NCBI GenBank assembly: GCA_029561455.1
Contig: JAKQIY010000076.1
Span: 81,838-145,837 of the forward strand
Length of the DNA stretch: 64,000 nt
Direction: 5' to 3'
From: a bacterium
GTDB taxonomy: Bacteria > Zhuqueibacterota > Zhuqueibacteria > Residuimicrobiales > Krinioviventaceae
Made by a program: the position numbers and the translations under genes
Notes under the pieces: model-generated
Databases searched by the model: none
What the model was told of the DNA's origin: nothing
Seen by the model: the letters and a program-made list of their open reading frames with translations, nothing else
In this document: piece after piece, positions 3,821-48,384 of the stretch
Numbering within the stretch: the stretch's first letter is position 1
Layout of the letters: every line of letters starts with the position of its first letter

Positions 3821-4546
3821 TTAGCGGGAACGGTAAAAACGATACCGTTTAGCTTTGGATTCAAGATTCATTTTCTTTAAAGTTGCCCGTAGTTTGAAAT
3901 AGCCGATTTTGGTAAATCCAAACCGTTGCGATTTCAACTCTTTACAAATACTCATCACTCCCCCCATTGGATTCTCGATAACTATCTTTTTGATCTTTTC
4001 AGTAACAGGCAGATCAGCTTCCTCAATAGCCAGTTTGCGTTTGCTGAAAGAAGCAGATTTGGGTACAGCAATACCTTTTTCATGACGGCGGGCAGCAATA
4101 GCTTCGATTTCATCTTCAGTGGGGGTTGAATCGCTTTCCTGAATTTCTGTTAAGGCGCCATTATGCGGTGAAGTAAATTTTAAACCACGGCAATAATCAA
4201 AATCATCTATTGCCTCTTCCAGAGAGTCATAACTGGTCAGGATGCGGTTGAATTCCAGCATTTCAAACACTTCATAAACATCGGGCGTCATTTGGGTAAT
4301 TTTAAGATCGCCGCCCTTTTCGCGCAAACCGCGAATTTCACCAACAAAGATACCCCACCCTGCGCTGCTGACATAATGCACACCACCCAGATCAATGATA
4401 AACTGGTTATTGCCCTGATTGATCTGTTCAGCCAGGGTCTTTTGCAGATCGGGTGAAGTTGTCGTATCGATATAACCGCTTACACGCAATAATATAATAT
4501 CTTTTAATGCACCTATTCTATATAAACTTTTCTCAATACCTTCCAT
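3821..4546 (-). CDS. STAS-domain protein (anti-sigma-factor antagonist-like) with a basic C-terminal extension
   Basis: N-terminal about 110 aa match the STAS/SpoIIAA fold motifs (LRVSGYIDTTTSPDLQ...FIIDLGGVHYVSSAGWG); the C-terminal 130 aa are unassigned and Lys/Arg-rich. Confidence 0.6.
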   Translation of the reverse strand: MEGIEKSLYRIGALKDIILLRVSGYIDTTTSPDLQKTLAEQINQGNNQFIIDLGGVHYVSSAGWGIFVGEIRGLREKGGDLKITQMTPDVYEVFEMLEFNRILTSYDSLEEAIDDFDYCRGLKFTSPHNGALTEIQESDSTPTEDEIEAIAARRHEKGIAVPKSASFSKRKLAIEEADLPVTEKIKKIVIENPMGGVMSICKELKSQRFGFTKIGYFKLRATLKKMNLESKAKRYRFYRSR

Positions 4547-4862
4547 GCCCTGCCCAAGTACGAATTCTTTATGTTTGTATGTAATTTATTTATTCAAAAA
4601 AAGCAAAGTTAATGCCAGTGATAAAACTGTTAATAATTAATTTATAAAAATTTTAAAATAGATTTCATTTATCATTCTTATTTTTATTGAACTTAGACAA
4701 CCAATCATTACGCCTGTTCATTGCGGTATTGCCCAAAAATCACAAGGGCATAAAAATGCCGTTCTTTTTTACTGATATTGTTATAGCGCGAAACACTTTT
4801 GACTCATACCAAAACAATATCAGTATGACAATAACATCCATCAAGAACGGCGCAAAAATAGT

Positions 4863-6356
4863 CTATTTATGTTTTTTATTATTTACCAGCGATAAATATG
4901 TTTTAACATATTTTTCTGCAGCTACAGACCATGAATAATCGGCGCGCATACCGCGTTTGATCAGCTTTTGCCAGTTCTTTTGATCATTATAAACAGCAAC
5001 AGCACGTTTGATGGCATCTACCATATCTTTTTTATTATATGGTGTAAACGAAAAACCATTACTGTTTTCCGGATCCTGATCATAATCGATTATTGTATCT
5101 TTCAAACCTCCTGTGCTGCGTACAATCGGTACAGTTCCATATTTTAAACTATACATCTGATTCAAGCCGCAGGGTTCATAACGGGACGGCATTAAAAACA
5201 TATCGCTGCCCGCTTCAATCAAATGCGCCAGGTCATTGTCGAACTGTAAAAAGAGCGCAACGTTTTTCGGAAAAGTTTTACAAATCTTTTGCAAGGCGTC
5301 GTGATAAGCCGGTTCACCCAAACCCAATATCACCAGACGAACATCCAGGGCGATAATATCTTTAATAGCAGCCTGAAGTAAATCAAAACCCTTTTGCCCT
5401 GCCAGCCGCGACACCATGCCGATCAGGGGTTTGTTGTCATTGGTCGGGAAATTACATTTTTCCAGTAATTTAAGCTTATTATGAGCCTTGCTTTCCGGTT
5501 TGTTATGGGAATATTTTTCAGCAATCAATGAATCCGTTTCGGGATTCCACTCGGAATAATCGACGCCGTTCAAAATACCTTCAAAATCTTTATTGCGCGA
5601 TTTTAAATAGTCGGTCATTCCAGCGCCAATCTCCGGATCGGTGAGAACTTCATCGGCATACGCCTGGCTGACCGTGACAATTTTATCGGCTGTGAGAATA
5701 CCGGCTTTTAAGAAATTTATACTATTATGATGTTTTAAATCGCTTATTCCATCCTTGTAATTATCACCAATTCCCAGTAATTCCAGGTTATCGGCTGTAA
5801 AGTTACCCTGGTAGGCCATATTATGAATAGATAAAACAGTAGAACAATTGGCATAAAAGGGATCTTTATTGAATTCATGTTTTAAATACCACGGTACAAG
5901 TCCGGTCTGCCAGTCATTACAATGGATAATTTGTGGTTCCCAATGCAGCAATTTTATTGTTTCCAGGGCTGCTTTACAAAACAAACCGAATCTTTCTGCA
6001 TTATCAGGCAGGTCGGTTCCAGTTTCGGGGTCGACATACAAATCATTACCACCGAAAAAAGGTTTGTATTCAAGAAAATAGACCTGTACTTTGGAATCGG
6101 GAATAAAAGCCGATTTGGCGCAGGCAATATGATCGTTTTCCCCCAATTTTATTTTAACCCGTTTCAAACGTATGACTTCACGCAAAACATATTTCCGGTC
6201 GTTAATACAACCATATTTGGGCATAATTACGCGAATATCATGCCCCATATCATAAAGAGCTTTGGGCAGGGCGCTGGAGACATCCGCCAGACCACCTGTC
6301 TTGGCAAAAGGAGCTACTTCGGATGATAAAAATAAAATTCTTAGCCTGGTTTTCAT
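4863..6356 (-). CDS. glgA: Glycogen synthase (ADP-glucose type)
   Basis: MKTRLRILFLSSEVAPFAKTGGLADV... N-terminal KTGGL motif; 497 aa, the typical GlgA length. Confidence 0.9.
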   Translation of the reverse strand: MKTRLRILFLSSEVAPFAKTGGLADVSSALPKALYDMGHDIRVIMPKYGCINDRKYVLREVIRLKRVKIKLGENDHIACAKSAFIPDSKVQVYFLEYKPFFGGNDLYVDPETGTDLPDNAERFGLFCKAALETIKLLHWEPQIIHCNDWQTGLVPWYLKHEFNKDPFYANCSTVLSIHNMAYQGNFTADNLELLGIGDNYKDGISDLKHHNSINFLKAGILTADKIVTVSQAYADEVLTDPEIGAGMTDYLKSRNKDFEGILNGVDYSEWNPETDSLIAEKYSHNKPESKAHNKLKLLEKCNFPTNDNKPLIGMVSRLAGQKGFDLLQAAIKDIIALDVRLVILGLGEPAYHDALQKICKTFPKNVALFLQFDNDLAHLIEAGSDMFLMPSRYEPCGLNQMYSLKYGTVPIVRSTGGLKDTIIDYDQDPENSNGFSFTPYNKKDMVDAIKRAVAVYNDQKNWQKLIKRGMRADYSWSVAAEKYVKTYLSLVNNKKHK

Positions 6357-6469
6357 ACTATACCTTATTTATCATGACAATGGGGCGTATCACTCTATTA
6401 CAGCAGAATTTATATTAATTCCATCAGAACAGATACTTATAATTTAGCAAAATTTCCATCAAAATCAAT

Positions 6470-6500
6470 AAAAAAGGGTAACGCCCGTTACCCTTGAATT
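6470..6500. terminator. Bidirectional rho-independent terminator
   Basis: AAAAAAGGGTAAC-GCCC-GTTACCCTT hairpin flanked by an A-run and a T-rich tract, between convergent/adjacent 3' ends. Confidence 0.6.
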
Positions 6501-6518
6501 ATTTCCATAAAAGACGGT

Positions 6519-7310
6519 TTACAACCGGGATAAATAAGTCTGCGCTCGTGAGACATATTCGCTATCGGGATAATTGGAAATTAATTTTTCGAATTCACTT
6601 CTGGCCCGGTCTTTATTGTCGAGACGTAAATAACATAACCCGACTTTTAATTGCGCGGAATCAAGTTTATTCGATGAACTATAGGTAAATACTTTTTGGA
6701 ATTCCAAAATAGCTTGATTAAAATCGCCCAGGGCATAATAACATTCACCCTTCCAATACTGGCAGTTATCAACCAAAGTATTAGCAGTGTTTCCGGTCAT
6801 TAATTCATCAAAACTCTGAATAGCCTGACGATAACTACGGTTTCTATACAAACTTAAAGCCGCTTCATAACGTCCTTTAAAAGAGTTGTCGGCAGCGCCG
6901 GCAGCGGGTTTGGACGGTGTCGTTGCCATCTGATTTTGCAATTCCTGAATGCGCCGGTCGCGTTCGGCCAACTCGGCTTTTAAAGTTGCCAGTTCTGTTT
7001 CTTTACGTTTAGCTTCAGCTTCTAATTGGTTGACCGGCACGGCGCCAGAATCGGAAAACTCGGTTTGCGGTATAGTTTGAGAGTTGTCGTCCTCGGTTAT
7101 CCCTAATAATCGCAATACTTCAGCCTCATCGGAAGAGGCGTCCAGATCGCTTAATGCCTGGTTATCCAATTCTTCCAGGCTTTCATCGCTAAACAATTCA
7201 TCATCAAAACCCTGGTTGCCGGCACCGGTACTGGCACAGGACCCCAGATATAACATGGAAACGATGCTTAACAGCAAAATGAGCCAGGGCATGTATTTTT
7301 TTGTTTTCAT
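6519..7310 (-). CDS. TPR-repeat lipoprotein with coiled coil (CpoB/YbgF-like)
   Basis: Lipobox LYLGSCAS; coiled coil (EAEAKRKETELATLKAELAERDRRIQELQNQ); C-terminal TPR repeats; architecture of Tol-Pal-associated CpoB. Confidence 0.55.
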   Translation of the reverse strand: MKTKKYMPWLILLLSIVSMLYLGSCASTGAGNQGFDDELFSDESLEELDNQALSDLDASSDEAEVLRLLGITEDDNSQTIPQTEFSDSGAVPVNQLEAEAKRKETELATLKAELAERDRRIQELQNQMATTPSKPAAGAADNSFKGRYEAALSLYRNRSYRQAIQSFDELMTGNTANTLVDNCQYWKGECYYALGDFNQAILEFQKVFTYSSSNKLDSAQLKVGLCYLRLDNKDRARSEFEKLISNYPDSEYVSRAQTYLSRL

Positions 7311-8473
7311 TCTTCACTCCTGCTTTGTTTTCGTAATACCAAAAAAGTTGCTGCGCCCCAGCTGATTGCGGTTAATGCTTTGACAGCAGTCCGCCAAATC
7401 GGGGCATTTTTTATTAAAGTAACTTCTATCGGTCTCTTTGGTAAACCGGAATAACCGATACCTGTTAAATCATCGGTAATTGCGACAATAAAATACTCCA
7501 AACCACCAACATCAATTTGATCTTTATCCAGAACTGCGCTGTAATCGGTGCCCTGGATTGTTTCCATTTTCAATACATTCCAGTTCTTATTTACATCTGT
7601 CCTGAACAGAACAGCGACTATGCGCAAAGGAATTGTGGAAAACACCTGCGCCTTTAATTTCAAGTCGCTTCCCTGCTCCGCCTGGAACACCGGTTTATGC
7701 TTGACCAGCGGCTTTTTATAGTCAAAATCTACCGGCACTCCCCCTTCAGGAATGCCATCATGATCCATATAAGCATTACGGTCTTCCGGGTGCATCGGGT
7801 CAACATCCAGCTTTATCGGTATAAAATCCCGATCCTGATCTTTTTTATTTTCAACCGGTAAATAATAGTTAATGCCGAGTGCAGCGCCGATAATACCATC
7901 ATTTTCATCGCCGCTGATGATCTGATCCAGGCGGTCGGTAAATGTATACTTGTAATCCACTTCAAGCAGGACGCTGAATTTTTCTTCAATACGGAACTCT
8001 AGTCCGCCGCCAAATTTTATAAAAGAGTTGAGTCGCTTTGTTGTTTGGCCATTTATGACAAGCAGTTTATTATCAAAAGTAGTTTGATACCATAAACCCC
8101 CGGCGCCGATAAAGGAATAAGGATTAACACGTTTTAGCGGTAATATATTCATACGCAGCGCCAGATCAAATGGCATTATACTGGTCTTGAATTTCTCTGC
8201 TTCAATGTAACTGCTGTTAAGACGTACCGCATCACGATTGGTGCGCAGAGTATTATAACCGACCTGGCTGCAAAGTAACAGATAGGGATTCGGACTATAC
8301 CCAACAAACAAGGAAATGTCGGGCGTTAATACCGGGCCGTTCCAATCACCTTCAAGCCTTGCCGCCCCAAATTTAAGGCCGGCGCCAAAACGGGGATCAT
8401 AAGCAAATACGATTGAATGATTGTTGTAACAAAATAAAATGAGAATCATTACTATCAGGAGTTTTTTTATCAA
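7307..8473 (-). CDS. Outer-membrane protein (OmpA-like N-terminal beta-barrel plus C-terminal domain)
   Basis: Signal peptide; alternating hydrophobic beta-strand pattern with aromatic turns over the first 200 aa; 4-nt overlap with the downstream TPR gene. Confidence 0.45.
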   Translation of the reverse strand: MIKKLLIVMILILFCYNNHSIVFAYDPRFGAGLKFGAARLEGDWNGPVLTPDISLFVGYSPNPYLLLCSQVGYNTLRTNRDAVRLNSSYIEAEKFKTSIMPFDLALRMNILPLKRVNPYSFIGAGGLWYQTTFDNKLLVINGQTTKRLNSFIKFGGGLEFRIEEKFSVLLEVDYKYTFTDRLDQIISGDENDGIIGAALGINYYLPVENKKDQDRDFIPIKLDVDPMHPEDRNAYMDHDGIPEGGVPVDFDYKKPLVKHKPVFQAEQGSDLKLKAQVFSTIPLRIVAVLFRTDVNKNWNVLKMETIQGTDYSAVLDKDQIDVGGLEYFIVAITDDLTGIGYSGLPKRPIEVTLIKNAPIWRTAVKALTAISWGAATFLVLRKQSRSEE

Positions 8474-34491: not shown

Positions 34492-35925
34492 TTAAAGATT
34501 ACCATCACCAGGTTTAGTGATGTTTTTATAATCCAGCGGGTTTATTTGATAAATACGAATTTTTTGCTGTAAATATTGACGTTTGATTTCCAGTAATTTC
34601 GCCGCTTTGCTTACATTCCCGGCACTCAGTTTGAGCGCCTGATTGATCATATTCCATTCGAACTCGCGGATGACCAGGTCTTTGGCATTACTAAAAGAGA
34701 CCTCGCCCGGAGAAAGAGATATCCGGGATTGAGGTGATTTAGTTAGCTCCACCGGCAGTAAATCGGTAGTTATAAGCGGTTTATCAGCCAGTACCACACA
34801 TTGTTCCAGAACATGCATAAATTGGCGGACATTGCCGGGCCATTCATAATCCAGCAATTGTTGCATGGCGGCAGATTCAAACCCCTGAATCATTTTGGTA
34901 TGTTTTTCGGCATATAAATGCAGGAAATGGTTTGACAGGATAGGAATATCCGTTTTACGTTCGCGTAGGGAAGGTAATTGAATTTCCACAACTTTGATGC
35001 GGTAATACAGATCCTCCCGGAATCTTCCCTCCTCTATCTCTTTACGTAAATTTTTATTGGTGGCGCTGATCAACCTGACATCGGTTTGTAATACTTTTTT
35101 ACCTCCAAGCCGGGTAAAGGATTTTTCTTCTAGTATCCTTAATATTTTAGCCTGGGTATCGATACTCATATCGGCAATTTCATCCAGAAAAAGAGTGCCG
35201 CCATTGGCAATTTCAAATTTCCCCTGGCGTTGATTGATCGCCCCGGTATAGGCGCCCTTTTCGTGACCGAACAACTCGCTTTCGACCAGGTCTTTGGGAA
35301 TAGCTGCGCAATTCATGGTAATAAACGGGCCGGCAGTCCGGGCGCTGAATGAATGGATCGTTTTGGCGGCCAGTTCTTTGCCGGTGCCGCTTTCGCCGGT
35401 TAGTAATACGGTTATATCGGTCGGCGCTACTTTTTCAATCAATTTAATAACTTCAAGAATTTTAGGGCTTTCACCGATAATAGAGCCCCGATTTTGTCCG
35501 GCCAGTTGCTGGCGTAATAATACATTTTCGCGCCCCAGGGTGATCTTTTCCAGGGCTTTGTTCACTACCAGGCGTAGTTCTTCAATTTCAAAAGGTTTGG
35601 ACAAGTAATCATAAGCTCCGGCTTTCATGGCTTCAACGGCTATTTTTTCAGAACCGAAAGCAGTAAGAACAATGATAAGCGGTAATAGCCCGGTTTCACG
35701 CTCCTGCTTTTGTACCTGGCCGATAAACTCCAGGCCGTTCATTTCCGGCATGTTAATATCGCACAACACTACATCGGGCTTGAATTCAACCAGTTTTTCC
35801 AGGGCAATCCGGCCGTTTTCTGCCTCTTCCAAATGATAGCGTGACTTGCCGAGCGCTTTGCGCATTCCATAACGGGCGGCGTCTTCATCATCAACTATTA
35901 ATATTCGGGACTTTTCAGTATTCAT
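34492..35925 (-). CDS. Sigma-54-dependent two-component response regulator (NtrC family)
   Basis: REC domain (ILIVDDE...D), AAA+ sigma-54 activation domain (GESGTGKE Walker A, GAYTGA variant of GAFTGA, ESELFGHEKGAYTGA), C-terminal Fis-type HTH. Confidence 0.9.
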   Translation of the reverse strand: MNTEKSRILIVDDEDAARYGMRKALGKSRYHLEEAENGRIALEKLVEFKPDVVLCDINMPEMNGLEFIGQVQKQERETGLLPLIIVLTAFGSEKIAVEAMKAGAYDYLSKPFEIEELRLVVNKALEKITLGRENVLLRQQLAGQNRGSIIGESPKILEVIKLIEKVAPTDITVLLTGESGTGKELAAKTIHSFSARTAGPFITMNCAAIPKDLVESELFGHEKGAYTGAINQRQGKFEIANGGTLFLDEIADMSIDTQAKILRILEEKSFTRLGGKKVLQTDVRLISATNKNLRKEIEEGRFREDLYYRIKVVEIQLPSLRERKTDIPILSNHFLHLYAEKHTKMIQGFESAAMQQLLDYEWPGNVRQFMHVLEQCVVLADKPLITTDLLPVELTKSPQSRISLSPGEVSFSNAKDLVIREFEWNMINQALKLSAGNVSKAAKLLEIKRQYLQQKIRIYQINPLDYKNITKPGDGNL

Positions 35926-39403: not shown

Positions 39404-39982
39404 ATGGGAAAAAAAATAAACACCATTATAAACAGAACTGAAACCATGAAAAGTCGCACAAACTATAATACCAGGTTGGTTATACTGATTTCGCTGACGC
39501 TCATTATTGAACTAATCGGCTTGCCTCAGCCGGCTACCGGGCCGTTGGTGAACATGATGTTATATTTAACCACGCTGCTGCTGGACATCAAAGCCGGGGT
39601 TATCCTCGGCTGCATCAGTCCTCTGGTGGCGGCGATGCGCGGCCAGCTGCCCCCCTTTTTAATACCGATGGTGCCCTTTATCATCGCCGGTAATATTTTG
39701 CTGGTGGTGTTGTTGGGGTTAATCGGTCAGGTGGGCAAATCAACCCGACCGGCGCAAGCCAATCCTATGTATTCATTTACAGTATGGCTGGGTGTGCTGG
39801 TGAGCGCGGTAGTTAAATTTGCATGGTTGTATACATCGGCCAAACTGTTATTACCGGTTTTATTCGGCAAGCATTTGCCGCCGCAGCTGGTGGCGATGAT
39901 GGCAATGCCGCAATTGATTACGGCCATTAGCGGCGGTATATTGGCGGTGATCATTGCCGGTATGTTGAAAAAAAGAACCTGA
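39404..39982 (+). CDS. Small polytopic membrane protein, ECF-transporter S-component-like (tentative)
   Basis: 5-6 TM helices; stretch LPQPATGPLVNMMLYLTTLLL resembles the IP..PVPITLQT motif of BioY/QueT-type S components; the true start may be Met15 (39446). Confidence 0.35.
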   Translation: MGKKINTIINRTETMKSRTNYNTRLVILISLTLIIELIGLPQPATGPLVNMMLYLTTLLLDIKAGVILGCISPLVAAMRGQLPPFLIPMVPFIIAGNILLVVLLGLIGQVGKSTRPAQANPMYSFTVWLGVLVSAVVKFAWLYTSAKLLLPVLFGKHLPPQLVAMMAMPQLITAISGGILAVIIAGMLKKRT

Positions 39983-40156
39983 GCATAACCAAAATAGAAG
40001 GACTGCTTGTTATAAATAAAATTATTTAAAATGGATCTCCTCGTTCCTAATTTCTGATCAGGAATGAGAGTGGTCAGGAATCTCCGATTCCCTACAAGCA
40101 GTTATTTTACTTTTAATATGTTCTTTGCATTTCAAATCAGAGAATTTATTCAAGCG

Positions 40157-40182
40157 GGTTCCCAATCGGGAGATTGGGAACC
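40157..40182 (+). promoter_or_regulatory. Perfect 11-bp inverted repeat (GGTTCCCAATC-GGGA-GATTGGGAACC) about 50 bp upstream of the aldolase start
   Basis: Read directly; candidate operator or leader hairpin. Confidence 0.4.
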
Positions 40183-40229
40183 GGAAGCTAAACAATAGCC
40201 GGAACACCATACACGAAAGAGAAAATACC

Positions 40230-41084
40230 ATGCCGCTAACCCCTTATAACATTTTATTGCAGGACGCCCGTAAAGGCAATTACGCCGTCGGTGCATTTAA
40301 TATATTCGGAATGGAATTTTTGCCCGCCATTCTGGACGTTGCCGAGGAGGAAAAAGCGCCGGTGATTTTGCAAATTGCGCCGCTGCATTTTTATTTATCC
40401 GATTTGCCCGAATACATCAAATACGTCAAATCGCAAATTGTTAAAGTAAAAGTTCCGGTGGCGCTGAACCTCGATCACGGCAAAACCCGGGAAATTATTA
40501 TCAAAGGCATTCGCAACGGCTTTCCTGCGGTGATGTTCGACGCCTCGCGGCTGCCGTTTACGCAGAACCTGGCGCAAACCAAAGAGATTGTCGAATTGTG
40601 CAAACCGCTGGGCATGACGGTGGAAGCGGAACTGGGCAGCCTGAATGACGAGGGTGCGGAATTGACGGCGGAAACTAAAGACAAGCTGTTTACCAATCCC
40701 GAACAGGCGGCAAAATTTGTCACGGAAACCGGCATCGACGCCCTGGCGGTCTCCATCGGTAATGCGCACGGTTTTTACAAGGGCGAACCGAAACTGGATT
40801 TTGCGCGCTTGCAGCAAATACGGGACAAGGTCCCTGTGCCGCTGGTGCTGCACGGCGGTTCGGGCATCAAAACGGATGATTTTAAAAAAGCCATTACCCT
40901 GGGCATTAACAAGATCAATATCTATACGGAAATGAGCGCGTCCGCCTCGCTGATGATGAAATCACTATTGAACGCCCACGATACCCCGGCGGACTTTCCC
41001 GCCACCCTGTACCAGGTGCGCCTGGCGGTGAAGGAAGTGGTACGCGAAAAGATGCACGTGTTTGGGAGCTGCGGGAAGGGGTGA
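40230..41084 (+). CDS. Class II fructose/tagatose-bisphosphate aldolase family protein
   Basis: Start at internal ATG 40230 (MPLTPYNILLQDARKGNYAVGAFNIFGMEF...); metal-site His motifs (LDHG, LHGGSG); notably GC-rich versus flanks. Confidence 0.85.
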   Translation: MPLTPYNILLQDARKGNYAVGAFNIFGMEFLPAILDVAEEEKAPVILQIAPLHFYLSDLPEYIKYVKSQIVKVKVPVALNLDHGKTREIIIKGIRNGFPAVMFDASRLPFTQNLAQTKEIVELCKPLGMTVEAELGSLNDEGAELTAETKDKLFTNPEQAAKFVTETGIDALAVSIGNAHGFYKGEPKLDFARLQQIRDKVPVPLVLHGGSGIKTDDFKKAITLGINKINIYTEMSASASLMMKSLLNAHDTPADFPATLYQVRLAVKEVVREKMHVFGSCGKG

Positions 41085-41092
41085 GGTATGGT

Positions 41093-41125
41093 TGCAGGAT
41101 GGGGTTTATGCCTCATCCTGCTATA
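41093..41125. terminator. Hairpin between convergent aldolase and hsdR 3' ends
   Basis: GCAGGATG-(12 nt loop)-CATCCTGC. Confidence 0.45.
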
Positions 41126-41128
41126 TAA

Positions 41129-44128
41129 TTAACCTACATCTGTTCTTACTTTATCAAACAACCAATCCAGTAAATACCTTGCAAAATTGCGATCATCGGT
41201 AAAGCGTTTGTACAAGTTAAAATTTGATTCAACAAACTCCTGCATACGTTCCTTGACCACATTATCAAAGGTAAGCCTGGCATTTTCCGGTGTATTCGCT
41301 TTAAGGCTGGCATGGATAACCGGATTTTCAACAAATTCCTGTTTAAGCTGTTGAAAAATAATTGTGTCTTTATCCGTAAAATTCGTACCGAACCGTTCAT
41401 TTAATTGTTTGATGATTTGCGACAAGGGTTCGATATCCTCATCCAACGGTTTGTGGGATTTTTCTTCATCTTCCGGGTTTAATACGCTCTGTTCCTGTTT
41501 TAATTTAATTGCTACACTTTTACCTTTTTTCACCCGGTAAGTAGCCATATCCACCATGCCCTGGATTTCCCGGGGCAGTTCATCTTTTAAAGGCGGTAGA
41601 TAACGAAGCAGCAACCGGGCGAATACATACATTTTTTCCAGATCGGCATCGACAAAGGTGATGATCTGGGATAAAAACGAATACAGCCGCACATAATCCT
41701 GCAGTTGTCCGCGCAAATCGGTTTGTTCTTCTGTGATTAAAAGTTTAAAGCGGTCGCTAAATGGGGCTAAAAAATGGTAAAGTTTATTCAGCTTGGCATT
41801 AGGCACAAAATATATTTGCGCGAATTTCTGCAAATCCATTTCGGAAATCAAGTGAAAATCCAAAATCCGCCGATACAGATCGTACAAGAGTTGTGGGTCG
41901 GTGGATTCGGAAAGAATTGTTTTTTCATAATAAGGCTGAAAGGCTTTTTGGATGTCATCCGCTTCATTACAAAAATCCAGTATCATGGTTTCGTGTTTAT
42001 CCGGGGGACAGATACGGTTCAGGCGGGATAAGGTTTGTACAGCATTCACCCCGCTAATTCGCTTGTCCACATACATGGTATGCAAAAGTGGTTGGTCAAA
42101 GCCGGTCTGGAATTTTTCCGCCACAATCATAAACCGATATTCCAGGCTTTTAAAAGTTCTGGCTGTCTGCGTTTCCGAAATACTATTCATATTGCCTTCA
42201 GTATATTCTTTTCCATCTAGAGGTATTGAACCTGAAAAAGCTACCAGCGCCTTGTATGGGTATCCCATTTCCTGAAAATATTGATCTATTGTTAATTTGT
42301 ATTGAACAGCATTAGCGCGAGACCTGGTTACGATCATTGCTTTTGCTTTATTTTGAATGCGATACGCTACGTTTTCATGAAAATGCTCGACCATAATTTC
42401 AAGTTTTTGCCGTATAGCATCGGGATGTCCCTCGACAAAGCGTTTTAATAAACTCGAAGCCTTGTTACGGTCAAACTTGGGGTCATCCTTAATTTTTTTC
42501 AGTAATTTCCAATAAGTTTTATAGGTAGTATAATTTTCCAATACGTCCAATATAAACCCCTCTTCTATGGCCTGGCGCATACTGTACAAACTGAAAGGTT
42601 CAAACGAGCCATCCGGTTGTTTAGCGCCAAAAAGTTCCAGGGTTTTAGGCTTGGGCGTGGCGGTAAAGGCAAAAAAGCTGACATTCGGTTGTCGACCCCG
42701 CGCCTTGATCTCGGCAACTATACGATCCTGCACGTCTGCCGCTTCTACCTCATCCTCTTGTTCGTTATCTTCACTGGTTGGGGAGGATAAAACTTTTTTC
42801 AGACTTTTGGTGGCCTCGCCGGTTTGGGAGGAATGGGCTTCATCGATGATTACCGCAAAGCGATGTCCGTCCATTTCTTTCATGTCATCTGCAATAACCG
42901 GGTATTTTTGCAAGGTGGACACAATAATATTTTTACCTTCTTCAAGGGCTTTTTTAAGTTGTTGGGCGGTACTGGTGATATTTTCCACAACTCCGAGCGT
43001 CTGTTCAAATTGCCGCATTGTGCTTTGTAATTGCCGGTCCAACACCCGCCGGTCGGTAATAACGACAATTGTATTAAATACCCGTTGATCCGCCTCGTCA
43101 TGCAGCACTGCAAGCTGGTGCGCCAGCCAGGCAATGGAATTGGATTTACCGCTACCCGCCGAGTGCTGGATCAAGTATCGGTGACCCGGTCCATGTTGCC
43201 GGGCATGATCTACAAGCCGCCGTACGCAGTCCAGTTGATGGTAGCGTGGAAAGATGATGGATTTTTCCCCGGTGAGTCTGCCGTCTTCATCTTCCATTTC
43301 GATTTCCGTTATAAACTGCTGGACAAGATTGAGCACACTATCCCGGGTCCAAATCTCATCCCATAAATATGAGGTGGCAAATCCCTGCATAGCCGGAGGA
43401 TTGCCGGCGCCGCCGAACTTGCCGCGATTAAATGGTAAAAACCGCGTGCGTTTCCCTTCCAGTTTTGTCGTTACATAAACCAGGTCGGGATCGATGGCAA
43501 AATGCGCCAGGCAGCGGCGGAAAGCGAATAATAACTCTTTGGGATCGCGGTCATTTTGGTATTGCTGAATAGCGTGCTTGACGTTCTGACCGGTTAACGG
43601 ATTTTTAAGTTCGGCGGTAATTATAGGTATGCCATTGAGAAACAACACCATATCCAGACAATTTTCGTTTTTGAGGCTGTATTTCAACTGACGAACGATA
43701 CTGAACTGGTTGGCAAGGTACAGCCGTCGGGTATCCTCGTTCAGGCCGGAGGAAGGTTTATAGTATGCCATTTGAAATTTACAGCCGTAACTACGCAAGC
43801 CGGAACGCAGTACTTTGAGCGCGCCGTATTTATCCAGATCCCGGCTCAGTAATTTCGCAAACTGGTTTTTGGCTTGCTCGCGGTGCTGATCGCAAAATTT
43901 CTGCCAGTCCTGCGGCTGGGTGGCGCGGATAAAGTTTATGGCGTCCTCCGCAATGATGCCCAGAGTACGGTCATAGTCTTCCGGTTGGCGTTTGATGTAC
44001 CCCTTGCTGTGCGGTATATTATAAGGAACGTCGGTCTCTTTAAAACGAGTATCGCTGCCGGTTTGTGGAACAGGATTAGTCAGAGACTCTTCAATTGAAT
44101 TTTCAAACGCTTTTTCAGAAATATTCAT
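41129..44128 (-). CDS. hsdR: Type I restriction enzyme R subunit
   Basis: 999 aa; SF2 helicase motifs (SAGSGKSNSIAWLAHQL Walker A; VIIDEAHSS DEAH box); N-terminal nuclease region; typical HsdR length. Confidence 0.95.
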   Translation of the reverse strand: MNISEKAFENSIEESLTNPVPQTGSDTRFKETDVPYNIPHSKGYIKRQPEDYDRTLGIIAEDAINFIRATQPQDWQKFCDQHREQAKNQFAKLLSRDLDKYGALKVLRSGLRSYGCKFQMAYYKPSSGLNEDTRRLYLANQFSIVRQLKYSLKNENCLDMVLFLNGIPIITAELKNPLTGQNVKHAIQQYQNDRDPKELLFAFRRCLAHFAIDPDLVYVTTKLEGKRTRFLPFNRGKFGGAGNPPAMQGFATSYLWDEIWTRDSVLNLVQQFITEIEMEDEDGRLTGEKSIIFPRYHQLDCVRRLVDHARQHGPGHRYLIQHSAGSGKSNSIAWLAHQLAVLHDEADQRVFNTIVVITDRRVLDRQLQSTMRQFEQTLGVVENITSTAQQLKKALEEGKNIIVSTLQKYPVIADDMKEMDGHRFAVIIDEAHSSQTGEATKSLKKVLSSPTSEDNEQEDEVEAADVQDRIVAEIKARGRQPNVSFFAFTATPKPKTLELFGAKQPDGSFEPFSLYSMRQAIEEGFILDVLENYTTYKTYWKLLKKIKDDPKFDRNKASSLLKRFVEGHPDAIRQKLEIMVEHFHENVAYRIQNKAKAMIVTRSRANAVQYKLTIDQYFQEMGYPYKALVAFSGSIPLDGKEYTEGNMNSISETQTARTFKSLEYRFMIVAEKFQTGFDQPLLHTMYVDKRISGVNAVQTLSRLNRICPPDKHETMILDFCNEADDIQKAFQPYYEKTILSESTDPQLLYDLYRRILDFHLISEMDLQKFAQIYFVPNAKLNKLYHFLAPFSDRFKLLITEEQTDLRGQLQDYVRLYSFLSQIITFVDADLEKMYVFARLLLRYLPPLKDELPREIQGMVDMATYRVKKGKSVAIKLKQEQSVLNPEDEEKSHKPLDEDIEPLSQIIKQLNERFGTNFTDKDTIIFQQLKQEFVENPVIHASLKANTPENARLTFDNVVKERMQEFVESNFNLYKRFTDDRNFARYLLDWLFDKVRTDVG

Positions 44129-44213
44129 ACCGTACTACCCCTTTAATCAGTTTATTTGCTCTTTAACCAGCTTCTATTTACAATTTAAGTGATTCCTGGA
44201 TATATTACAATAC

Positions 44214-44666
44214 TCAATTCGGTGTAAACAACTGTACATTAACCTCCGGTAGTTCCTGGAATACTTTTAAGATCATTTCATTAACCTTGTTCCAATTCAA
44301 GCCGCCCAGGCCGCAGCCAAGCGGCGTGATAGCAATGGAGCAAATCCCGTATTCTTTTATCACTGTTACCAGGTCTTGCAGGCCGGTTTGAATATCTTCA
44401 TATCGACTGTCCGATTTCCAGTGTTTTTTGGTCGGGAAATTAATAATATAACGGGGATTGATTAAGGTGTGCCGATCAAACACAAACATTTTACCTAATT
44501 GCAGTTCGTTTTGTATACAAGCATTTTCATAGGCATTAAAATTATCGGGAAATGCTTTTTTGAACTGCAAAGCTAATCCTTTACCCATAGTACCAACAGT
44601 ATTAACTGTATTGACCAATGCTTCCGCATCGGCTTTTAATATATCACCAGTTATAGATACAATCAT
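44214..44666 (-). CDS. Macrodomain protein, TARG1/DarG-type ADP-ribose glycohydrolase-like (150 aa, macrodomain only)
   Basis: GDILKADAEALVNTVNTVGTMGKGLALQFKKAFP...ITPLGCGLGGLNWNKVNEMILKVF parallels the TARG1/DarG macrodomain (catalytic Lys in the MGKG context; GCGLGGL phosphate-binding loop); ATGA overlap with the hsdS stop. Confidence 0.75.
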   Translation of the reverse strand: MIVSITGDILKADAEALVNTVNTVGTMGKGLALQFKKAFPDNFNAYENACIQNELQLGKMFVFDRHTLINPRYIINFPTKKHWKSDSRYEDIQTGLQDLVTVIKEYGICSIAITPLGCGLGGLNWNKVNEMILKVFQELPEVNVQLFTPN

Positions 44667-46015
44667 TCTACCATTTCCCGCACATCTATCTTGCCGGTAA
44701 CCGCCGCAGAGATAAGCGCCGCGCGGTATTCCTGCAATTTTTCAATACTGGCTTGGATTTTTCCGACAAGATTATCAATTTTAGCTGTTTCGTAATCAAG
44801 GTATTCTGCAATAGCGCGTTGTTCAAGATAGGGTGGAATTGGAATTTTAATATTTTTTAACTCAAAAGGGGTAATCGCTGGATAACTAACTCCGTTCGAT
44901 AGAGCAACAACTTTCTGAATAAAATATTCTGATTGAGCAAGTCTAAATAAATATTTCGGAAAAAGGTATATAGGTTGAAAAACAGCAAAACCAGTAGACA
45001 CTATAATTGTATCAGCATTATTAGTGATAAAAGAAATTGCTTTTAAATAAGTTCTAACAGTTGATAAGATAGTATCACCGATTTTAACACATCTTCTTGC
45101 TCTTGAAGGTGCTTCTTTAAAAGTTAGGGTATTACTAATATAATTTCCAATATTATCAACACTACTTATATCGATGTATTGGAATTCAAAATCTTGATAT
45201 GTTAATTCAGGTAATTCTTTATTGTTCACTAAAGCAATATATTTAACCTTTTTCACCTCCCACCCCTCCGGAATTTCTCCCAGCCACTCAATGCCGGAAT
45301 CTTTCATGGGCGCGGCGGGGTTCAGACCTTTGGTTACAGCGCGGGTAATGAGCGCGGCGCGTTTCTCCCGCAGCAGATCGATGAGCCGCTGCTTTTTTTC
45401 GATTAGCGCGTCCAGTCGGGCAGTTTCGTGGTCCAGGAAAGCGGCAATAGCGTTTTGTTCGGGGAGAGGAGGACATATTACATAAAGCTCCCGAAGTTCG
45501 GATTGATTAAATGTATTATTAACACCAGCCTTCACTGATTTAAAAAAACCAGTATATCTAAGATTATTAATAAACTGATGAAAATAATTTGAAGAATACA
45601 AAGTGTAATCAAATCTTATTCGTAATAAAAATGAAACATGTGTATATTTATCATTACTATAAAATACAGCTGTTTTCCCAACATGTTCTGAACTTCCATT
45701 ACGCCAATTAAATAATAAATCCCCATTTTGTAAAATTAATGATTTTTCAATATTTTCTTCAATTATTCCAGAAAAGGCAACCTCTTGTAAGTTCAAGTTC
45801 CCATCAATTAGAACATTAGGTAAACTTATAATAGGGATTCCAGTACTAATAGTTCTATCTAATTCTGTGCCTATTCCGTAGGATATGTTGGCGATTCTTT
45901 TTAATTTTAATGTTATCCAATGAACCGGAATTTTCCCCAGCCAGTCAATTCCGGAGTTCTTGTAAGCCGGACAAGGCCGGTGTTTATATAATGTATGGAG
46001 ATTTATGGCTGCCAT
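44663..46015 (-). CDS. hsdS: Type I R-M specificity subunit
   Basis: Two target-recognition domains separated by a conserved central coiled region; duplicated N-terminus/mid motif (GIDWLGKIPVHW / GIEWLGEIPEGW). Confidence 0.9.
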   Translation of the reverse strand: MAAINLHTLYKHRPCPAYKNSGIDWLGKIPVHWITLKLKRIANISYGIGTELDRTISTGIPIISLPNVLIDGNLNLQEVAFSGIIEENIEKSLILQNGDLLFNWRNGSSEHVGKTAVFYSNDKYTHVSFLLRIRFDYTLYSSNYFHQFINNLRYTGFFKSVKAGVNNTFNQSELRELYVICPPLPEQNAIAAFLDHETARLDALIEKKQRLIDLLREKRAALITRAVTKGLNPAAPMKDSGIEWLGEIPEGWEVKKVKYIALVNNKELPELTYQDFEFQYIDISSVDNIGNYISNTLTFKEAPSRARRCVKIGDTILSTVRTYLKAISFITNNADTIIVSTGFAVFQPIYLFPKYLFRLAQSEYFIQKVVALSNGVSYPAITPFELKNIKIPIPPYLEQRAIAEYLDYETAKIDNLVGKIQASIEKLQEYRAALISAAVTGKIDVREMVE

Positions 46016-48054
46016 TATTGATTCATCTCCCCCAGCATATCCAATATCTCTTTTTCAATCTTTTTAATATCCGCCTCGATCTCTTCCAGTGGGCGCGGCG
46101 GGGTATAGCGGTAAAAATAACGGTTAAAGTTGATCTCGTATCCCACCTTGCCCACCTCGCCATCCTTGTGATCGACAATGGCGGTATTGATCCAGGCGTC
46201 GGCGACAAACGGTTTGACTTCGCGGTCAAAATAATCATACACGGATTCGGACAGCGGTACGCTCTCGGTATCGCGTAGTTCCAGGTCCGCTTCGGGGTTG
46301 CCGTGGCTGTCCAGGCAGACATCGGCCGTTTCATCCCGCTCCGCCAGGGCGTTAAGTATGGCTTTTTTCAAAGGCGCTGCTGGTTTGACCGGTTTCAGAG
46401 CAGTGTCAATCAGTTCGCTGAATTCATCGCGGTTTTTATATAATGTATCCGGCAGGATGCGCAACAGGGCAAGTATCTGTTCCTGTAAATCTCGTCCGGT
46501 CTTTTCCTCCTGCTCTTTAATTTTCTTTTCTTTCTTTTTGCTGACGGCCAGGTTAATAAAGGCATTTTCACTACCCAGCCGTTGCAGGCGTTCTTCCGTC
46601 ACCTGAAAATTAAGGCGCAGCGGTCGTTCCACGGTGATTTTGCGAAAGCCGAAAAAGGTGGTCGGCACAATTTTACAATATTCATTTTCTTTAAAAAGTT
46701 GGTAGAGTTTTAATATTTCGGCAGCTTTTTCCGCAGGGATTTCCCGTCGTTTATCGCCCATGCTTTTGCGCATTTGCGTCCAGAAGGAAGAAGCGTCGAT
46801 CAATTGCACTTTACCAAGGCGTTGTTTTTCTTTGCGGTTACTTAATATCCAGATATAGGTAGAAATACCCGTATTATAAAATAATTGTTCCGGCATAGCA
46901 ATCAGCGCTTCCAGCCGGTCATTTTCCAGAATCCAGCGGCGGATTTCACTTTCACCGCTGCCGGCGTCGCCGGTAAACAATGGCGAGCCATTCATAATAA
47001 TTGCCACCCGGCTTTTATCATGTTCCGGGTTGTGAATATGGGACAACATGTGTTGCAAAAACAATAACTGGCCGTCGCTGATGCGGGGCAGACCGGCGCC
47101 AAATCGCCCTGCATAACCTTTTTCATATTCCTCCTGCACCGCGTCTTCATCCCGTTTCCAGTCCTTGCCGTACGGCGGGTTGGCGATGAGGTAATCAAAG
47201 TGTTTGCCGAGGTGACAATCATGGGCCAGGGTACTGCCGAAACGAATGTTTTCCGCATCACGTCCATCGGCAGATTTGATGTATAAATCGGATTTACAGA
47301 TGGCATACGTTTCAGGATTGACTTCCTGACCAAACAAGTAAATATCCGCCTGTGGATTGAGACCCGGTCGCCCGTCGCCGAGAATGTGGTCTTTGGCTAT
47401 AGTCAACATGCCGCCGGAGCCGCAGCAGGGATCGTAAACGGTAAGGGTCTTGCCGGGAATTGTAATTCGTTCCTCATCCCCGGCCAGTAACAGGTCCACC
47501 ATCAGGTGCACTACATCGCGCGGGGTAAAATGTTCGCCGGGGTTTTCGTTAAGCGATTCGTTAAACTTGCGAATCAATTCTTCGAATATAGTGCCCATCA
47601 TGACGTTGGAAACCTGGTCGGGTTGTAACCTGGCATTTTTAAAACGTTCCAGGACTTTAAATAACAAACCCGCATCATCCAGTTTATGAATGGTATTATC
47701 AAAATCGAATTTTTCCAAAACTTCGCGCATATTGGGAGAAAAGCCGTTGATGTAATTGCGCAGGTTGGCGGCCAGTCCTGAAGAATCATCTAATAATTTG
47801 CTAAAATCATATTGCGAGGTATTGTAAAATGCATATCCCGAAGCCTTGCGTAACAGTTGATCGGGATTATCCAGCTTACCGGCGTATTGGGCATTGGTCG
47901 CCAGGACTTGACGTTTTGTGGCTTCCAGCACACAATCCAGACGCCGCAATACGGTCAGGGGTAAAATAACATCCTGGTATTTACCGCGTTTAAAAGTATC
48001 ACGGATAAGATCCGCTACTCCCCAGATAAAACTGACAATTTCACTGTGATTCAT
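46015..48054 (-). CDS. hsdM: Type I R-M N6-adenine DNA methyltransferase subunit
   Basis: N-terminal HsdM_N domain; SAM motif I (DPCCGSGGML); motif IV NPPYG (ANPPYGKDW); 1-nt overlap with hsdS. Confidence 0.95.
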   Translation of the reverse strand: MNHSEIVSFIWGVADLIRDTFKRGKYQDVILPLTVLRRLDCVLEATKRQVLATNAQYAGKLDNPDQLLRKASGYAFYNTSQYDFSKLLDDSSGLAANLRNYINGFSPNMREVLEKFDFDNTIHKLDDAGLLFKVLERFKNARLQPDQVSNVMMGTIFEELIRKFNESLNENPGEHFTPRDVVHLMVDLLLAGDEERITIPGKTLTVYDPCCGSGGMLTIAKDHILGDGRPGLNPQADIYLFGQEVNPETYAICKSDLYIKSADGRDAENIRFGSTLAHDCHLGKHFDYLIANPPYGKDWKRDEDAVQEEYEKGYAGRFGAGLPRISDGQLLFLQHMLSHIHNPEHDKSRVAIIMNGSPLFTGDAGSGESEIRRWILENDRLEALIAMPEQLFYNTGISTYIWILSNRKEKQRLGKVQLIDASSFWTQMRKSMGDKRREIPAEKAAEILKLYQLFKENEYCKIVPTTFFGFRKITVERPLRLNFQVTEERLQRLGSENAFINLAVSKKKEKKIKEQEEKTGRDLQEQILALLRILPDTLYKNRDEFSELIDTALKPVKPAAPLKKAILNALAERDETADVCLDSHGNPEADLELRDTESVPLSESVYDYFDREVKPFVADAWINTAIVDHKDGEVGKVGYEINFNRYFYRYTPPRPLEEIEADIKKIEKEILDMLGEMNQ

Positions 48055-48185
48055 AAATTCCCTGTTTAGAATTCCCTGACAGAATATAATTTTTCATTGT
48101 AACAATATTAAATATTAAACGCCGGAAATATATAATTAAGAAATAAATATTAATTATCCAACATCTTTCTCATATCTCCCAACAA

Positions 48186-48210
48186 AAAAAGGCAGCTTGT
48201 GCTGCCTTTT
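48186..48210. terminator. Rho-independent terminator (strongest on the minus strand, end of the esterase transcript)
   Basis: AAAAAAA-GGCAGC-TTGT-GCTGCC-TTTT. Confidence 0.7.
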
Positions 48211-48253
48211 CATTACTTGAAAATTTTTAGAACTAAATGTCCTGCCTTTTTTG

Positions 48254-48368
48254 CGCCCTGGGATGGGATTCCCAGGGCGAGCAAATCACGGTTTTTAAAG
48301 AAATGGTGGGATAAAATCCCACCCTACATTTTTTTATGTAAATCGCGCCGGGTAATGAAACCCGGCGC
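48254..48368. repeat. Three consecutive GC-rich REP-like hairpins in the esterase 3' region
   Basis: CGCCCTGGGA-TGGGAT-TCCCAGGGCG (48254-48279); GGTGGGAT-AAA-ATCCCACC (48305-48323); GCGCCGGGT-AATGAA-ACCCGGCGC (48345-48368). The third shares the CCGGGT-ATGAA-ACCCGG core with a hairpin at 58946-58965. Confidence 0.5.
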
Positions 48369-48384
48369 TATCTGGAGTAATTTT

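Follow-up and report, generated by a model that had tools for sequence, protein, structure and literature searches.

Passenger genes are known from the slot between hsdS and hsdR of type I restriction-modification (R-M) operons, among them the Rlo genes and the PrrC anticodon nuclease of the EcoprrI locus, an effector that is controlled by the R-M complex. Here we describe a type I R-M operon in which this slot holds a gene for a 150-amino-acid (aa) macrodomain protein. The operon lies within positions 81,838 to 145,837 of contig JAKQIY010000076.1, from a bacterium of the Krinioviventaceae; this 64-kb stretch, analyzed as a whole, is hereafter called the window. The closest described system is DarTG2, whose position between hsdS and hsdR of a type I R-M operon has already been published (Jankevicius 2016; PMC5179494). 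DarTG also occupies this slot of a type I R-M operon in the RptR-RMS-DarTG-M48 island of enteropathogenic Escherichia coli (EPEC) (PMC12255303, NAR 2025), a study that describes the hsdS-hsdR position as a general insertion hotspot for unrelated passengers.

The window locus shares with these systems the slot, the DarG macrodomain clade, and the coupling to hsdS. Its likeness in hsd subfamily is to 13 cassettes found in this study. Unlike the DarTG2 cassette and the EPEC island, it is without darT, the DarG C-terminal domain, the RptR regulator, and the M48 peptidase; no open reading frame (ORF) resembling the last two flanks the operon. Because darT and the C-terminal domain are missing, the locus cannot act as an abortive-infection toxin-antitoxin module. 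A first-pass annotation, made from the sequence alone, had presented the arrangement as undescribed. Given the published cassettes that view has to be given up: the arrangement is a derivative of the known DarTG2-in-type-I-R-M cassette and not a new kind of system, and the macrodomain gene is very probably what deletions have left of a DarTG module. Our literature searches returned no paper on a DarT-less, macrodomain-only DarG inside a type I R-M operon.

Operon layout and identity of the macrodomain

The island genes all lie on the minus strand, and the ORF list gives the order hsdM-hsdS-macro-hsdR, as follows.

46015-48054, minus strand: hsdM, methyltransferase subunit of the type I R-M enzyme, intact, 679 aa
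44663-46015, minus strand: hsdS, specificity subunit with two target-recognition domains, 450 aa
44214-44666, minus strand: macrodomain-only darG gene, without the DarT-binding C-terminal domain, 150 aa
41129-44128, minus strand: hsdR, restriction/translocase subunit, intact, 999 aa

The hsdM and hsdS genes overlap by 1 nucleotide (nt) and hsdS and the macrodomain gene by 4 nt (ATGA), and a spacer of 85 nt separates the macrodomain gene from hsdR. In all of this (order, strand, coordinates, and overlaps) the ORF list and the sequence agree with the first-pass annotation. A promoter and terminator scan of the macro-hsdR spacer found no terminator-like site on the minus strand.

On sequence and modeled fold, we assign the 150-aa protein to the DarG-type macrodomains, with TARG1 more distant and MacroD/YmdB far removed. 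It scores 250 bits against the NCBIfam DarG equivalog (NF048014), over profile positions 3 to 149 of 338 only, and 247 bits against the PADLOC DarG model (positions 1 to 146 of 329). The best Protein Data Bank (PDB) matches are the DarG macrodomains 5m3i and 5m31 of M. tuberculosis and T. aquaticus (E = 7.7e-51 and 4.4e-49); in the same search TARG1 reached E = 5.8e-10 and other macrodomains E > 1e-3. An AlphaFold2 model of the protein (pLDDT 91), compared by Foldseek, matched 5M31, 5M3I, and 5M3E at TM 0.96 to 0.97 with a root mean square deviation of about 1 Å, and matched TARG1 at TM 0.83 and YmdB at TM 0.73. TARG1/OARD1 was rejected as the closest match on these figures: by sequence and model it shares a broad clade with the 150-aa protein but is not its orthologue.

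Residue numbering coincides with that of T. aquaticus DarG, and N22, K29, K80, H82, W83, G119, and G121 are all present. In the T. aquaticus enzyme K80 is the catalytic lysine, and N22, K29, and G119 matter for turnover (Jankevicius 2016; PMC5179494). In the window protein K80 stands within the DarG-specific FPTKKHW motif. The first-pass annotation had rightly named the GCGLGG loop (G117-G122), but the lysine of its "MGKG" motif, which it took for the catalytic one, is the substrate-binding K29. The crystallized DarG macrodomain constructs (5M31, 5M3E, and 5M3I) are 53% identical to the window protein and of the same length, with N22, K29, K80, and G119 conserved. Those constructs are engineered truncations, and the isolated domain is active and a sufficient antitoxin, whereas the window truncation is natural and carries threonine in place of P114. 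The protein ends at the boundary between macrodomain and linker. A hidden Markov model (HMM) of the DarT-binding C-terminal domain (about 200 aa), run against the six-frame translation of the window, gave only matches with E > 3.

Homologues in JGI automatic annotation are named "O-acetyl-ADP-ribose deacetylase (regulator of RNase III)," which would make the protein a housekeeping MacroD/YmdB-type enzyme lying in the operon by chance. We give this practically no credence, since the MacroD/YmdB-type NCBIfam models score 18 to 34 bits (cut-offs 215 to 252), the YmdB fold is much the more distant one, and FPTKKHW with its K80 is in place. The comparison of sequence and fold refutes a deacetylase identity of this type and upholds the earlier placement in the DarG/TARG1 clade.

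No DarT ORF is adjacent to the macrodomain gene or present elsewhere in the window, as the first-pass annotation had said of the immediate neighborhood, and a jackhmmer-derived DarT HMM matched the six-frame window translation only at E > 3. In DarTG2 a darT gene (PF14487) is adjacent upstream of darG; here hsdS directly abuts the macrodomain gene. Having the macrodomain but neither the C-terminal domain nor an adjacent DarT, the locus is best called a DarG-macrodomain remnant rather than a DarTG system.

The R-M genes around it make up a complete type I system in one operon, with HsdM, a two-domain HsdS, and an HsdR that combines an HSDR_N nuclease with an SF2 motor, all intact. HsdM carries Pfam HsdM_N and N6_Mtase and matches PADLOC MTase_I across its full length (907 bits); HsdS carries Pfam Methylase_S in two stretches (PADLOC Specificity_I, 384 bits); and HsdR carries Pfam HSDR_N, ResIII/SWI2_SNF2, and a T1R_D3-like domain, with a match to NCBIfam TIGR00348 hsdR.

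The DarTG cassette and its erosion at two sister loci

We compared the window with loci ranked by similarity to the 150-aa protein, 80 from reference genomes (GTDB) and 80 from metagenomes. DarG is full length (about 345 to 360 aa) in 152 of the 160 loci (95%), and it is directly preceded by darT (PF14487) in 76 of the 80 from reference genomes. A large family of stand-alone short proteins, as a first candidate list had seemed to indicate, was rejected as an artefact of candidate selection: every entry on that list was at most 250 aa, the loci are 95% full length, and an exhaustive HMMER search returned mixed lengths with many proteins of 340 to 360 aa.

About 13 of the 160 loci have the order hsdM-hsdS-darT-darG-hsdR (L021, L029, L035, L037, L054, L057, L065, L073, L107, L117, L121, L146, and L155). 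Most of these loci encode HsdM and HsdR proteins 37 to 46% identical to those of the window over their full length (39 to 46% for HsdR), which places these cassettes in the window's type I subfamily; the HsdM of a further locus, L171, falls in the same range. Because the loci come from distant phyla, the cassette is a mobile composite one. A separate observation concerns L035, an archaeal metagenome-assembled genome (MAG; Candidatus Syntrophoarchaeum) with an hsdS-darT-darG-hsdR cassette whose junctions are identical to those of the metagenome locus L107. Such identity points to a transfer of the composite cassette between domains or else to a binning artefact.

The closest relative of the window locus, at 80% aa identity, is L004, whose MAG carries the label uncultured Cytophagia. 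Its right flank matches that of the window in the aldolase gene (90.6% nt identity) and the ECF-transporter gene (91.6%), with L004 13622-14519 corresponding to window 41117-40220 at 90.6%, and the region upstream of hsdM matches at 77.6% over 125 nt (blastn). The shared right flank and the homology upstream of hsdM indicate that the same island occupies the same chromosomal site in both genomes. In L004 the last ~70 codons of hsdS survive as a remnant, to which the 3' end of the window hsdS is homologous. They are followed by a darT frameshifted into two ORFs, both PF14487, by a full 360-aa darG, and by a stretch of ~12 codons from the start of hsdR (MSFSEK..., where the window has MNISEK...). 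The hsdR gene has otherwise been replaced by a helix-turn-helix gene and a Gabija pair (GajA, 736 bits; GajB, 663 bits) on the opposite strand. The remnants in the two genomes together imply a common ancestor with hsdM-hsdS-darT-darG-hsdR. As judged from these alignments, darT and the darG C-domain disappeared on the way to the window; in the line leading to L004, darT was inactivated and hsdM, hsdR, and most of hsdS were lost. The two sister genomes thus present the same island eroding in different ways (L004 6834-13737 is syntenic with window 41002-48368).

Two segments of L004 are absent from the window. The darT segment (L004 7295-8011, about 715 nt) has no counterpart between window positions 44680 and 44655, and the darG C-domain segment (L004 8447-9041, about 595 nt) has none in the window. 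The sites of the two losses, and the motif that follows them, are these.

44662-44667, minus strand: darT-deletion junction, ...GAATGATT..., in which the hsdS stop TGA overlaps the macrodomain start ATG
44173-44213, minus strand: AT-rich spacer between the new macrodomain stop and the darG-tail scar; the darG C-domain sequence is missing here
44152-44172, minus strand: non-coding scar of the last darG codons, AGC TGG TTA AAG AGC AAA TAA (in L004 GGT TGG TTA GAG AGC TGA, for ...GWLES*)
44138-44144, minus strand: Shine-Dalgarno-like AAAGGGG upstream of the hsdR ATG, also kept in L004 before the hsdR-start remnant

Window 44169-44111 aligns with L004 9042-9101 (blastn and pairwise alignment), and the AAAGGGG motif follows the scar in both. 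In intact cassettes ATGA or GTGA forms the overlap of the hsdS stop and the darT start, and ATGAT stands at the start of darG. A first deletion would have removed darT cleanly, plausibly between the ATGA of the hsdS-stop/darT-start overlap and the ATGA(T) of the darG start; joining these two motifs gives exactly the ...GAATGATT... junction, so a microhomology route is one we infer from the sequence. A second deletion would have taken the DarT-binding C-terminal domain, about 200 codons of darG. Since hsdS overlaps darT in the same way in intact cassettes, the coupling of the macrodomain gene was inherited or recreated from the cassette architecture. The 4-nt ATGA overlap, from which the first-pass annotation had argued for co-translation with the specificity subunit, is real, but it does not speak for any new link in function.

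Recurrence of macrodomain-only forms

Clean macrodomain-only forms are rare: the unbiased 160 loci hold only 3 or 4. Further short homologues were sampled on long contigs, partly by choosing short proteins and in all cases by high similarity, which brought the short forms to 14. Between hsdS and hsdR, where the first-pass annotation had proposed a survey of inserts in relatives, macrodomain-only genes stand at no fewer than two other loci, L171 and L169, besides the intact darTG cassettes described above. Both belong to the window's hsd subfamily, with HsdR proteins 40 to 43% identical to its own. L171 reads hsdM-hsdS-macro(165 aa)-85 aa-PIN-hsdR, and the first ~15 codons of darT (MTDIYHITHVQNLP, including IYHITHVQNLP) are left between hsdS and the macrodomain gene. 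L169 reads hsdM-hsdS-[SLFN_AlbA_2/HATPase_c_4 gene]-macro(176 aa)-hsdR, and the last ~40 darT codons (...IGVYSTKELGRVSEAVL...EEWYY) remain just upstream of the macrodomain gene. The other macrodomain-only genes have a variety of neighbors: a broken darT and an MmeI-type gene in L086, BREX BrxL in L173, Fic in L084 and L172, and a HigB/SecB-type module in L087.

Twelve of the 14 short forms are most closely related to full-length DarGs, so truncation has happened many times independently. Within the sampled loci we count about ten reductions, three of them independent events inside R-M cassettes (window, L171, and L169). Every catalytic residue is present in all 14, and 41 to 43 of 43 conserved columns are kept, as in full-length proteins. 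All 14 also end no more than about 22 residues past the domain boundary; just one locus besides these, L136, stops midway through the C-domain. These regularities suggest, weakly given the sampling bias, that the macrodomain is preferentially retained. They fit an order of decay for the toxin-antitoxin module in which the toxin goes first, the toxin-binding domain next, and the catalytic antitoxin domain is repeatedly left intact.

Loss of the toxin alone can be seen elsewhere. A frameshifted or truncated darT lies beside an intact full-length darG in about 8 of the 80 reference loci (L004, L010, L014, L020, L021, L050, L071, and L082; darT region at about 7200-8000 in most), and at L089, L095, and L141 darG is full but darT gave no match. 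Toxin-first decay looks common, although some of the broken-darT cases may be long-read assembly errors, as in L021, where hsdR is in at least 8 pieces.

Three further observations came from these loci. In L171 an 85-aa ORF and a PIN-domain protein (5495-6158), a VapBC-like pair, are another slot passenger between the macrodomain gene and hsdR. L170, from a Planctomycetes MAG (4314-7828), has an intact DarT (216 aa), a macrodomain-only ORF (165 aa), and then a 263-aa ORF of unknown function; its DarG is split, with the DarT-binding domain forming the C-terminal half of a separate 382-aa protein (276 bits). Finally, a protein with SLFN_AlbA_2 and HATPase_c_4 domains is encoded directly upstream in 3 of the 14 macrodomain-only loci and in 0 of 152 full-length ones (Fisher p = 5e-4). 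These loci are L051 (4486-8489), L083 (6498-8474), and L169 (3170-5531), and none of their three macrodomains finds its closest relative in another of the three. In L169 the gene occupies the former place of darT, and the darT 3' scar is kept. The protein may be a new macrodomain partner, or its gene may be one that repeatedly replaces darT.

Function of the retained macrodomain

Our overall reading, which we hold to be somewhat likelier than its rivals taken together, is that the window gene encodes a toxin-less orphan antitoxin, probably an active ADP-ribosyl-DNA hydrolase, that is independent of R-M. Among the readings offered in the first-pass annotation, that of an orphan antitoxin fits best, given the DarG clade, the missing adjacent DarT, and the deletion scars. 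The macrodomain would be translationally coupled to hsdS and cotranscribed with hsdR from the hsd operon transcript. By homology it would hydrolyze thymidine-linked ADP-ribose on single-stranded DNA through K80. With no cognate DarT it would have nothing of its own to neutralize, and the R-M enzymes, themselves intact, would act independently of it. Any role would then lie in immunity in trans to DarT2 from mobile elements, in anti-addiction, or in lesion repair.

That an isolated macrodomain can do such work has precedent. The T. aquaticus macrodomain alone rescues cells from DarT and is a sufficient antitoxin (PMC5179494), and a strain with a chromosomal copy of it (DH5alpha-macro; Schuller 2021) is among the key resources of PMC11543638. 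AdfM, a macrodomain-only DarG2-like protein of a chimallivirus (compare AdfA, likewise an orphan antitoxin-like enzyme of phage, which acts against DarTG1), removes DarT2 adducts (PMC13309987). Like the role proposed here, AdfM is stand-alone, toxin-less, and active in trans, but it is phage-encoded counter-defense, whereas the window gene is chromosomal, lies in a host defense operon, and is 80% identical to a bacterial DarG against at most 54% for phage proteins. SCO6735 of Streptomyces coelicolor, for which protection against foreign DarT-like toxins has been proposed (PMC9411070), and human TARG1 are also partner-less hydrolases of thymidine-linked DNA ADP-ribosylation; they belong to other macrodomain subfamilies and do not come from a local DarTG module. 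An identity as a phage anti-DarT factor was considered for the window protein and rejected, as the flanks are chromosomal housekeeping genes and the best phage match (Thermus phage phiMa) is at 53.7%. DarG-like macrodomains are encoded in 641 phage records, and in several Streptomyces phages the matching macrodomain lies beside an annotated ADP-ribosyltransferase gene.

The sequence figures show no decay, and the macrodomain is apparently undamaged. Against a family HMM built from 80 relatives the window protein scores 242.5 bits (mean 247.8, standard deviation 9.6), and of the 44 columns conserved to 95% or more it keeps 43 (42 to 43 of 43 to 44 over the column sets used). Compared with L004, dN/dS in the macrodomain gene is 0.154, averaged over both lineages, and derived aa changes on the window and L004 branches number 8 and 8 relative to the consensus and 7.5 and 5.8 in a relative-rate comparison, so that the window branch has no rate excess; these figures, like dS below, pool time before and after the deletions, and the outgroups are saturated at synonymous sites. 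The other metagenome copies, identical or 1 to 2 nt apart in 20 kb, provided no usable polymorphism for selection tests. Synonymous divergence from L004 reaches dS 0.84 in the macrodomain gene, against 0.28 to 0.36 in the aldolase and ECF-transporter genes alongside (window 39616-41117), which points to a greater age of the island than of its flanks, to faster evolution, or to allelic exchange by recombination. We judge it probable that the enzyme is still active. Whether it has been kept for its usefulness, rather than merely not yet decayed, is close to an even question, with the balance slightly against.

Several points weigh against our reading. The single lost column is P114T (codon 114 at 44325-44327), which adjoins the G117-G122 loop that closes on ADP-ribose; proline occupies this site in all 165 other sequences compared, and the change could reduce activity or mark relaxed constraint. 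The deletions are undatable, so selection on the macrodomain after them is not provable, and they may be recent, since scar and coding sequence resemble their L004 counterparts to much the same degree (about 76% and 82%). The sampling of short forms is biased towards intact copies. Last, the DarT search covers 64 kb of the genome, and a DarT may be encoded elsewhere in it.

One rival view is that the gene is a functionless relic, in which darG became neutral after darT was lost, the C-terminal half went, and the macrodomain ORF has simply not been hit yet, persisting partly because it sits in a selected operon where disruption could affect hsdR expression. The broken darT genes beside intact darG in the reference loci, L004 included, speak of ongoing module decay, and frameshifted darG genes occur as well (L158 and L136). 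The still recognizable scars and the unique P114T fit this view, as does the finding that among the 160 similarity-ranked loci hsdS-macro-only-hsdR is confined to the window's own species. Set against it are the intact catalytic residues and conserved columns of all 14 macrodomain-only proteins, the clustering of truncations near the domain boundary, and the same end state reached at least three times independently in R-M cassettes, arguments that ascertainment bias weakens. On balance we think a functionless relic unlikely, while taking it to be the most serious of the rivals. For a trans-acting antitoxin that serves a DarT gene at another place in the genome, in a split or second DarTG, speak the sufficiency of the macrodomain on its own against DarT (PMC5179494) and L170, which shows that split arrangements exist. 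The empty DarT searches in the window, the rarity of unlinked pairs implied by the 76 of 80 reference loci with darT immediately upstream of darG, and the scars of a local darT deletion make this a very improbable account.

Still less credible to us is the composite defense that the first-pass annotation had put forward, in which the macrodomain cooperates with the R-M enzymes; it might, for instance, clear ADP-ribose off phage or host DNA and so leave that DNA open to restriction or methylation. Tight integration into the operon, with the coupling to hsdS and no terminator before hsdR, speaks for such a role, as does the recurrence of macrodomain-only genes in R-M cassettes, and Jankevicius et al. 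raised cross-talk between methylation and ADP-ribosylation as an open question (PMC5179494). The coupling, however, is inherited, and the slot hosts unrelated passengers (PMC12255303; the VapBC-like pair in L171 and the AlbA_2 gene in L169). Macrodomain-only forms arise no less readily away from type I R-M systems, with MmeI, BREX, Fic, and HicAB genes as neighbors, and literature searches found no report of DNA ADP-ribosylation as an anti-restriction measure. We found no evidence of cross-talk between macrodomain and restriction in our sequence and literature analysis, and no dependence on R-M of the kind seen in PrrC is indicated for this protein, which shares with PrrC and Rlo only the slot. 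Our main result is to that extent a correction: the locus is a decay product of a described DarTG-in-type-I-R-M cassette and not a new composite defense.

Returning to the orphan antitoxin, repeated reduction to the macrodomain could itself have been selected, with hosts keeping an anti-DarT immunity gene (against plasmids, integrative and conjugative elements, phages, and competitors) coexpressed with restriction; we regard this as rather doubtful. If retention is selected, bacterial chromosomes carry orphan anti-DarT enzymes like those of phage counter-defense, and the spread of DarTG-based defense and addiction between genomes would be affected. Another possibility is that the macrodomain has been paired anew, with the SLFN_AlbA_2/HATPase_c_4 protein observed at loci outside the window. 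Automated defense-system finders would report such loci as plain type I R-M with an unexplained "macro domain protein."

The remaining features of the window concern the edges of the island.

48055-48384, minus strand: upstream (promoter) region of hsdM and left island edge; 48245-48368 is homologous to L004 6834-6958
41085-41128, no strand: right island edge, between hsdR and the convergent aldolase gene (40125-41084, plus strand); flank syntenic with L004

In the hsdM upstream region two sigma-70-like sites, at 48182-48153 and 48111-48083, are consensus-level matches only. The flanks on either side are chromosomal housekeeping genes, syntenic with L004. An identical operon is present in at least 3 other metagenome assemblies, on contigs of 8 to 173 kb with 0 to 2 mismatches in up to 20 kb. 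The G+C content is 0.36 to 0.39 across hsdS and the macrodomain gene (window 44000-46000), against 0.43 to 0.50 in hsdM, hsdR, and the flanks. Outside the island, an NtrC-type response regulator of 477 aa (window 34492-35925, minus strand) is intact in the window and in L002, and is called as two genes (106 and 370 aa) in the JGI contig L001 (18742-20175), which over 20 kb matches the window at all but 2 nt.

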